NCBI RefSeq assembly: GCF_003991155.1
Contig: NZ_CP031293.1
Length of the DNA stretch: 64,000 bases
From: Escherichia coli
GTDB taxonomy: Bacteria; Pseudomonadota; Gammaproteobacteria; Enterobacterales; Enterobacteriaceae
Direction: 5' to 3' (one strand)
Shown here piece by piece: positions 40,896-42,767 of this stretch; position 1 is the stretch's first letter; each line of letters starts with the position of its first letter. The notes beneath the pieces are model-generated. The model ran no database searches. It was not told the origin of the DNA and was given only the letters and a program-made list of their open reading frames with translations. A program made the position numbers and the translations under genes.

Positions 40896-42767
40896 TTATC
40901 TACGCATGAATGCGTATTCTGATTGTGGTTGTGCGACGTAATGCCCCGGCCCGACGCATTGCAACGAGACGGCTACAACCTCTTCACCACGCAGATGAAT
41001 ATTGCTGGGAAGATCGTCCGACAGCAGTACACGCTGCGGTCGTTGTCGGGACGGTTCAGCGACCGGAACTGCCGCCAGTAATTTACGCGTATAAGGATGC
41101 TGCGGGTTTTCGAAGACCGCGCGCCGTGGACCAATTTCAACAATTTGTCCGAGATACATCACCGCCACACGATGACTAATCCGCTCTACCACGGCCATAT
41201 CGTGGGAGATAAACAGATACGCAATGCCGAAATCACGCTGGAGATCGAGCAACAAGTTGATAATCTGCCCGCGAATAGAAACATCCAGCGCCGAGACGGC
41301 TTCGTCGGCAATGATCACTTTTGGATTCAATGCCAACGCGCGAGCAATGCAGATGCGCTGGCGCTGACCGCCGGAAAACTCATGAGGGTAACGCCAGGCA
41401 TGTTCCGGTAACAGGCCTACGCGCTCCAGCAACCACGCAACGCGTGCAGCCGCTTCTTTACCTGGCAATAAACCGTGTACGCGCAGCGGTTCGATAATCG
41501 AATCACCGATGGTCTGACGTGGGTCCAGCGAAGCGTAAGGGTCCTGAAAAATAAACTGAATATCGCGGCGCAATGCCTGAAGTTTACCGGATGACAAGGT
41601 ATCGATTCGCTGACCGTTAAAGATAATTTCGCCGCCCTGCGATTCGACCAGGCGCAGCAACGCCCGCCCGGTAGTGGATTTACCGCTGCCAGACTCGCCC
41701 ACCAGCGATAGCGTTTCGCCAGGCCAGAGATCAAAACTCACTTTCTCAACGGCATGCACTTCCCGCGTTACGCGATTCAACAAACCGCTGCGCAAAGGGA
41801 AACGGGTGACCAGATTACGCACCCGTAAAACAGGTTCGCCATCCACCACCGTTTTCTGCTCGATGGGTGGTTCCTGTTTCGCTGGATGTTCAAGCGATAT
41901 CAATGGGAAACGTCGGGGATAATCTAACCCTTTCATCGCACCAAGTTGCGGAACAGCAGCTAACAGCGCACGGGTATAAGGATGTTGCGGTGCATGAAAA
42001 ATCTGTTCGACGCTACCCGTTTCCACCGCCTCGCCCTGATACATCACCAGAACCCGATCGGCAATCTCTGCCACCACGCCCATATCGTGCGTGATAAAGA
42101 TAACGCCCATCGACATCTCTTTTTGCAATACTTTGATTAATTGCAGGATCTGCGCCTGAATAGTGACATCCAGCGCGGTGGTTGGCTCATCGGCAATCAG
42201 CACCGCCGGGCGGCATGACAGCGCCATCGCAATCATCACTCGCTGGCGCATCCCGCCAGAGAGTTGATGCGGATAACGTGAAAGAATGGTTTGTGCCTCC
42301 GGAATGCGTACCTGATCCAGCATCCGCTTCGCCTCGACCATTGCTTCTTCACGACTGGCGTTTTGATGCAGACGAATAGATTCAGCAATCTGTTCACCCA
42401 CAGTAAATACCGGGTTCAGCGATGTCATCGGTTCCTGAAATATCATCGCCATATCCGCACCGCGCACATGGCGCATTTGTGCAGCGCTCTGCTCGCTAAG
42501 TTCAATCACTTCGCGACTGCGCCGCCGCAACAGCATTTTATCGCACTGTACTAAACCGCCCGCCTGTTCCAACAGACGCATCAATGCCAGCGCAGTCACT
42601 GACTTACCGGAGCCGGATTCGCCAACAATTGCCAGCGTCTCACCACGTTGCAGGCTAAAAGAGAGATTGCGGACCGCAGCTATTTTCTGCTGGTCCTGCA
42701 TAAAGGCAATATTCAGATTTTCAACCGCCAGCACACCACCGGCATTAAGTTCATCACTGTGTGGCAA
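40896..42767 (-). CDS. gsiA: Glutathione ABC transporter ATP-binding protein GsiA (two ABC domains)
   Basis: Two Walker A motifs (GESGSGKS twice); K-12-like N-terminus (M)PHSDEL corresponds to a TTG codon at 42765-42767 that overlaps the 3' end of iaaA; start position uncertain. Confidence 0.8.

Follow-up and report, generated by a model that had tools for sequence, protein, structure and literature searches.

Results

The window, a 64,000-nt stretch of Escherichia coli DNA (contig NZ_CP031293.1), carries the adjoining genes iaaA and gsiA on its minus strand. iaaA occupies positions 42754..43719 and encodes a 321-aa isoaspartyl/beta-aspartyl peptidase, as delimited by the list of open reading frames (ORFs), the NCBIfam model NF007589, and RefSeq. 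gsiA encodes the 623-aa ATP-binding subunit of a glutathione ABC transporter and, read from a TTG codon, spans 40896..42767 on the minus strand, in agreement with NF007613 and RefSeq. An earlier, sequence-only reading of this DNA had placed the start of gsiA at this TTG (42765..42767, minus strand), within the last codons of iaaA, and both the sequence and the RefSeq/PGAP annotation confirm the placement. On the minus strand, the 3' end of iaaA reads ...GTT GCC ACA CAG TGA, with the TGA stop at 42754..42756, 11 nt 3' of the first base of the TTG. One base out of phase with iaaA, the gsiA frame reads ...AAA AAG GGG ACA CCG TTG CCA CAC AGT GAT GAA CTT.... The plus-strand caa at 42765-42767 corresponds to the minus-strand TTG in this frame and is followed by codons for P, H, S, D, E, and L, so that GsiA from the TTG is a protein of 623 aa beginning MPHSDEL..., the K-12-like N terminus that had been recognized. 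The two genes share 14 nt (42754..42767, minus strand), which hold gsiA codons 1 to 5 in one frame and iaaA codons 318 to 321 plus the stop in the other. A Shine-Dalgarno (SD)-like AAGGGG lies at 42774..42779 on the same strand, 6 nt 5' of the TTG and within iaaA codons 314 to 316.

Two further in-frame codons on the minus strand frame the question of where gsiA begins. The longest ORF in the gsiA frame opens at an ATG (42873..42875), 36 codons 5' of the TTG, and would encode 659 rather than 623 aa. The overlap with iaaA, which had been put at over 100 bp for this ORF, would be 122 nt. Downstream, the 2006 K-12 annotation had gsiA begin at the GTG codon for Val12 (42732..42734). The analyses described below indicate that the ATG is not the start and that the GTG is not the main start.

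A 601-nt segment spanning the junction had matches in 5,425 of 5,426 complete E. coli genomes and was 100% identical to that of strain 2016C-3878. gsiA is annotated from exactly this TTG in the curated K-12 MG1655 record and, by PGAP, in five other E. coli genomes, including 2016C-3878. The MG1655 records place iaaA (b0828) at 866568..867533 and gsiA (b0829, NP_415350.2, formerly yliA; U00096.3/NC_000913.3) at 867520..869391, which is the same gene with the same TTG start and the same 14-nt iaaA overlap as in the window. In K-12, the start had been moved to the TTG from the GTG 33 nt downstream, a change supported by tetracycline ribosome profiling (TetRP). The GsiA proteins of the window and K-12 are 98.4% identical and differ only in allelic positions, such as N8/G11 in the window versus D8/N11 in K-12; the window gene is an allele of b0829. 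Its product matched the NCBIfam GsiA equivalog NF007613 with 1374.8 bits (cutoff, 1077), residues 1 to 623 aligning with positions 1 to 623 of the 623-position profile. Pfam searches detected ABC_tran (PF00005) in two stretches (1.5e-63) and oligo_HPY (PF08352) in the C-terminal region (2.1e-19). Neither Pfam nor NCBIfam matches reached into the 36-residue upstream extension, and the TTG is where the GsiA equivalog model starts. Likewise, IaaA matched the equivalog NF007589 over positions 1 to 321 of 321 (714.3 bits, cutoff 567). The K-12 gene order is iaaA, gsiA, gsiB, gsiC, gsiD, with gaps of -14, 19, 17, and 2 nt.

We compared the junction across 80 loci, taking one genome per species, from Escherichia to Betaproteobacteria. 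In most of these loci, iaaA was the gene immediately 5' of gsiA. For the start codon itself, we used the 42 closest loci and took the conserved Val12 (VLAVENL) as the anchor. In 25 of these 42 loci, a start codon stands at the position homologous to the gsiA TTG, being TTG in 7, GTG in 9, and ATG in 9. The others either have an N-terminal length change, with the start codon 1 to 5 codons off, or are nonenterobacterial. An internal Leu codon would be expected to drift to CTN or TTA, and the interchange among TTG, GTG, and ATG marks an initiator codon. By chance, a lone in-frame TTG would be unremarkable; what goes beyond chance is its conservation across genera as a TTG, GTG, or ATG start. As proteins, the PHSDEL residues are conserved in Escherichia, Citrobacter, Leclercia, and Enterobacter. 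Moreover, AAGGAG or AAGGGG is found 5 to 9 nt 5' of the gsiA start in nearly all loci of the Enterobacteriaceae. When anti-SD pairing with the 3' end of 16S rRNA was calculated for five in-frame candidates in the window, the TTG was the best, at -7.8 kcal/mol, compared with -1.5 for the upstream ATG, -3.1 for a GTG six codons upstream, -4.9 for the Val12 GTG, and +0.4 for an ATG at codon 23.

In-frame stop codons lie 3 to 12 codons 5' of the gsiA start in many genera. The nearest is at codon -5 in Lelliottia/Enterobacter (loci L011/L012), -4 in Cedecea (L024/L025), and -3 in Siccibacter (L026), and an in-frame stop occurs within 36 codons upstream in 28 of the 42 related loci. We then asked in which frame the 108 columns (36 codons) 5' of the TTG vary, using a gap-free alignment of Escherichia and Citrobacter with the window as the reference. 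Thirty-four of the 108 columns were variable, and 28 of the 34 are third positions of iaaA codons and second positions in the gsiA frame. Counted as codon differences from the window, the changes amounted to 0 to 1 synonymous versus 2 to 24 nonsynonymous in the gsiA frame and to 2 to 19 synonymous versus 0 to 6 nonsynonymous in the iaaA frame. Since the substitutions fall mostly at second positions of the gsiA frame and are nonsynonymous there, the extension is not under selection as protein; it evolves as iaaA coding sequence with an open alternative frame.

Published initiation-site experiments bear directly on the choice of start, and ribosome profiling had been named as a suitable check. 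In the K-12 TetRP study of Nakahigashi (2016), yliA/gsiA appears in row 8 of Table S2, with a new TTG start at -33 nt from the 2006 start (PMC4909307). The signal at the TTG was 46.3, 140.5, and 70.6 in three samples, compared with 0, 0, and 2.98 at the GTG annotated in 2006, and the table gives the predicted protein as MPHSDELDAGNVL... (PMC4909307). According to the same table, the 2014 record U00096.3 (867520) adopted the same change (PMC4909307). The starts of other E. coli genes, such as ybeZ, were likewise moved to a TTG from TetRP and adopted in the 2014 annotation; for ybeZ, but not for gsiA, an N-terminal peptide is also listed in support of the revised start (PMC4909307, Table S2). 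The supplements searched, namely, those of TRAINSPOTTER, the Salmonella riboproteogenomics work, and TetRP (PMC4909307), gave no N-terminal peptide of GsiA. The N terminus of IaaA is present in the TRAINSPOTTER supplement, and gsiA is absent among the matches listed there; gsiA is also absent from the Salmonella riboproteogenomics supplements.

A second data set gave negative results, in conflict with TetRP. INRI-seq is a cell-free assay with synthetic fragments reaching from about -30 to about +120 relative to the start (PMC9825163, Table S2). It gave no initiation peak at the gsiA TTG in any of five replicates and lists no alternative translation initiation site (TIS) for gsiA, and the in vivo Ribo-RET column of the same table is zero at the TTG (PMC9825163). 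INRI-seq verified about 70% of annotated starts and missed about 30%, while Ribo-RET verified about 18% and missed about 82% (PMC9825163). Because these methods verify only such fractions of annotated starts, the negatives at the gsiA TTG are weak, and we rate the positive TetRP signal as more informative. The gsi genes are poorly expressed in rich medium.

The overlap itself has a restricted distribution. In Leclercia, Enterobacter, Lelliottia, Phytobacter, Superficieibacter, Pseudocitrobacter, and Siccibacter, IaaA ends in ...GIYRE or IYQE, and its TAA stop lies immediately 5' of the SD, 9 to 13 nt before the gsiA start, with no overlap. Only in Escherichia and Citrobacter does the position of this TAA read AAA. 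There, IaaA gains eight residues (KGDTVATQ) and ends at a TGA inside gsiA. In the window, the AAA is the codon for Lys314 (42778..42780, minus strand), the site of the ancestral stop. Because the outgroup genera keep the nonoverlapping TAA, the overlap is a derived state of Escherichia and Citrobacter that arose through an iaaA TAA-to-AAA change. In strain 23CRST011, the last iaaA codon has become TAG instead of CAG through a C-to-T substitution that leaves His3 of GsiA unchanged (CAC to CAT), so that IaaA has 320 aa and the iaaA/gsiA overlap is 11 nt. The KGDTVATQ tail of IaaA looks dispensable.

Several features of the junction are relevant to translational coupling, which the sequence-only reading had suggested for an iaaA-gsiABCD operon. 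Both the SD and the UUG lie inside iaaA, the two genes overlap by 14 nt on the same strand, and the iaaA stop follows 11 nt 3' of the UUG. The combination of an in vivo TetRP peak with no INRI-seq peak on the isolated fragment in vitro is consistent with coupling. O157:H7 genomes provide a natural variant. In these genomes, codon 116 of iaaA is a nonsense codon (about 607 nt 5' of the TTG), and PGAP calls the gene a pseudogene, yet the two genomes examined have intact, identical gsiA genes. An exact 60-mer containing the nonsense codon is present in 297 complete E. coli genomes.

The iaaA-gsi locus has been described as operonic (PMC10355420). A literature search for gsiA together with translational coupling returned no paper combining both. 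In a consensus scan, one promoter-like site was detected upstream of iaaA (43826-43798) and no sense-strand promoter-like site inside it. Three weak terminator-like matches in iaaA were at chance level, and we rejected the idea that a promoter or terminator within iaaA uncouples the two genes. When the region from -30 to +15 and a 100-nt segment were folded as RNA, the energies did not stand out from those of shuffled sequences (z = -0.08 and -0.95). An 11-bp helix formed by CCACCGGUAU and AUGCCGGUGG encloses the start in the window, and it was rejected as a conserved element because K-12 has a shorter version and E. albertii, Citrobacter, and other genera lack it.

Discussion

Our analysis supports the TTG within the 3' end of iaaA, rather than the ATG that opens the longest ORF, as the start of gsiA, because the annotation, the cross-genus conservation of the start codon and the SD, the frame-specific substitutions, and the published TetRP data all point to this codon. 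The non-ATG start that had been proposed thus holds, and both checks named with it, ribosome profiling and a cross-species alignment of GsiA N termini, came out in its favor. This start of a well-characterized gene is already known, as the current reference annotation and published ribosome profiling say the same.

Two other starts deserve to be weighed, and the earlier reading had named both as outcomes that would speak against the TTG. In one, GsiA would begin at the upstream ATG and have 659 aa, the first 36 of them read in the alternative frame of iaaA, across the 122-nt overlap. In favor of this codon, it is an ATG and opens the longest ORF, and Escherichia, Citrobacter, Leclercia, and Superficieibacter all keep the frame open as far as the same point. 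Against this, it lacks an SD, its local structure is the most stable among the candidates (-16.7 kcal/mol), and E. albertii, Leclercia, and Superficieibacter do not have the codon. The extension falls outside the family matches and is interrupted by stops in two-thirds of the close relatives, and its almost exclusively second-position, nearly all nonsynonymous variation effectively refutes the reading. TetRP screened NTG codons only within 60 nt of the old start (PMC4909307), and for this reason the far-upstream ATG is excluded by the comparative evidence only; the frame test and the in-frame stops leave it with a negligible probability. The other possibility is that GsiA starts, mainly or additionally, at the Val12 GTG, giving the 612-aa product of the 2006 annotation, now superseded. 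The paralogous ABC ATPases YejF, DppD, OppD, CntD/F, and SapD align their residues 2 to 5 with GsiA residues 12 to 13, where the conserved core starts; many relatives have GTG at this codon, and its SD-like pairing is moderate. However, the near absence of TetRP signal at the GTG contrasts with the strong signal at the TTG, the codon is GTA or GTT in loci L003, L006, and L007 and a nonstart codon in several others, and the PHSDEL residues upstream of it are conserved as protein. INRI-seq also lists no alternative gsiA site even though its oligonucleotide covers the GTG. We therefore regard initiation at the GTG as very improbable, if slightly less so than at the upstream ATG. Two remaining in-frame codons were also rejected. 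The GTG six codons 5' of the TTG (42785-42783) has no SD and is GCG in L003 and L004. The ATG at Met23 (42701-42699) has no SD either and is missing in Citrobacter, and a start there would cost the ABC domain its first conserved strand; the paralogs align from residue 12.

A different question is how ribosomes reach the TTG. Initiation there could depend essentially on termination and reinitiation by ribosomes leaving iaaA, with de novo, SD-directed binding of 30S subunits playing a minor part. The stop 11 nt 3' of the TTG is well placed for this, since that distance falls within the published reinitiation range, and UUG is a weak initiator. The 0/5 INRI-seq result was obtained on a fragment without upstream translation, as opposed to the clear TetRP signal in vivo, and moeB, which starts at a TAATG junction in the same window, is likewise silent in INRI-seq. 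However, INRI-seq misses about 30% of all annotated starts, the gsiA site has a good and conserved SD, and neither conserved nor significant RNA structure sequesters the start. The arrangement without overlap and with its own SD is ancestral and still widespread, and about 297 complete genomes of the O157:H7 lineage retain an intact gsiA downstream of the iaaA nonsense codon. For these last two reasons, coupling is probably not obligatory, and a strict dependence of gsiA on iaaA translation is improbable; we would give it a minor share of the probability. The putative coupling remains plausible as a modulator of gsiA translation, unproven as it is.

The moeA-moeB junction (TAATG, 45156-45160), 2.4 kb away, resembles that of iaaA and gsiA in having a same-strand stop/start overlap with the SD in the upstream coding sequence, a layout that permits translational coupling. 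The junctions of the trp operon are classical examples of the overlapping ATGA or TAATG type. The iaaA-gsiA junction differs from such junctions in that its overlap is 14 nt instead of 1 or 4, its start is UUG, and the overlap is recent and derived by stop loss.

Taken as a whole, the observations are best explained, in our view with high probability, by translation of gsiA from the UUG at 42767-42765 as a 623-aa protein beginning MPHSDEL..., with the upstream extension not translated as GsiA and the overlap a lineage-specific by-product. The comparative data and the published profiling establish the position of the start. In this model, gsiA supplies the ATPase of the GsiABCD glutathione/GSSG importer. 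Its SD and start lie within the last iaaA codons of a presumably polycistronic iaaA-gsiABCD mRNA, and the AAGGGG 6 nt upstream would position the 30S subunit on the UUG. The 36-codon extension is not translated as GsiA and is an alternative frame of iaaA that happens to be stop-free. The ancestral iaaA TAA, located just 5' of the SD, changed to AAA in the Escherichia/Citrobacter lineage, so that iaaA now stops at the next TGA, 11 nt inside gsiA. Because iaaA ends inside gsiA, ribosomes finishing iaaA would pass over the gsiA start and be released beside it, which would probably boost initiation at the weak UUG. With its own SD, the site would very likely be able to initiate independently as well. 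We infer both the cotranscription of iaaA-gsiABCD and any contribution of coupling. A bolder and rather unlikely extension of the model is that the recent TAA-to-AAA change turned an independent, SD-driven gsiA start into a weak UUG that draws a substantial part of its ribosomes from those ending translation of iaaA; the amount of Gsi transporter would accordingly follow the translation of iaaA, and lineages with a truncated iaaA (O157:H7) would have measurably less GsiA.

The gsiA finding is correct but ordinary, and it matters little beyond annotation hygiene. The correct N terminus of GsiA (623 aa, from the TTG) already stands in RefSeq and in EcoCyc-type annotation. Tracks based on the longest ORF overextend gsiA by 36 codons into iaaA. 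Such overextended ORFs can be resolved by a frame-specific substitution test combined with cross-genus conservation of the start codon. Of modest interest are the derived overlap, through loss of the iaaA stop, and the natural truncation of iaaA in O157:H7. With these variants, iaaA-gsiA offers a small natural system for gauging the share of a 14-nt overlap in translational coupling.

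The GsiA N terminus and the gsiA start region

Alignments of GsiA with the paralogous ABC ATPases YejF, DppD, OppD, CntD/F, and SapD began at GsiA residue 12 or 13 and at a paralog residue between 2 and 5, and none began earlier. Since the paralogs align only from this point (residue 12; window 42734-42732), the first 11 residues are an N-terminal extension specific to GsiA. The PHSDEL motif was kept in Escherichia, Citrobacter, Leclercia, and Enterobacter, and the N-terminal region was variable elsewhere.

In the strain of the window, the Shine-Dalgarno sequence and TTG start codon of gsiA could be enclosed by a potential 11-bp helix (CCACCGGUAU / AUGCCGGUGG; window 42791-42800 and 42735-42745, minus strand). 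K-12 had only a weaker form of this helix, E. albertii and Citrobacter had none, and folding around the start was no better than that of shuffled controls. We therefore rejected it as a conserved element; it is probably fortuitous.

The region upstream of iaaA

A consensus scan of positions 42500-44000 returned a single sigma-70-like match (window 43798-43826, minus strand; TTTACA, 17-nt spacer, TATATT; 10 of 12 positions matching). It lies within the 203 bp that separate the divergently oriented iaaA and moeA genes, about 80 nt 5' of the iaaA ATG, a position consistent with a putative promoter for iaaA-gsiABCD as far as a consensus match can indicate. On the plus strand, moeA (43923..45158) and moeB (45158..45904) overlap by 1 nt at a TAATG junction (window 45156-45160) preceded by GGAGG, a geometry classical for coupling. 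Like gsiA, moeB is listed without an in vitro initiation peak on an isolated fragment in the table of a cell-free initiation profiling (INRI-seq) study (PMC9825163).

Variation in iaaA

In two O157:H7 genomes, NZ_CP038355.1 (F8092B; nt 27-29 of locus L084) and NZ_CP143966.1 (L086), iaaA codon 116 is a premature stop (CAG to TAG; ...LVME*SPHV...; homologous to window ~43374-43372), and the automatic PGAP annotation labels the gene a pseudogene. The gsiA gene 3' of the truncated iaaA is intact in both (WP_001301498.1). Among the complete genomes of E. coli (n = 5,426), 297 contained an exact copy of a 60-mer spanning this stop.

At the other end of the gene, the AAA codon for IaaA Lys314 (window 42778-42780, minus strand) occupies the site of a TAA stop in most other Enterobacteriaceae (loci L009, L011-L013, L015, L018, L026, and L047 were compared). 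Thus, among the retrieved loci, which did not include Salmonella, the 8-residue tail KGDTVATQ of Escherichia and Citrobacter IaaA is a lineage-specific product of stop-codon loss. In strain 23CRST011 (L083, NZ_AP045770.1), a single C-to-T change within the iaaA/gsiA overlap is synonymous in gsiA (His3, CAC to CAT) and converts the last iaaA codon from CAG to TAG (nt 642-644; homologous to window 42759-42757), leaving an IaaA of 320 residues and an overlap of 11 nt. This allele, ending one codon early, shows that truncation of the IaaA C-terminal tail is tolerated.
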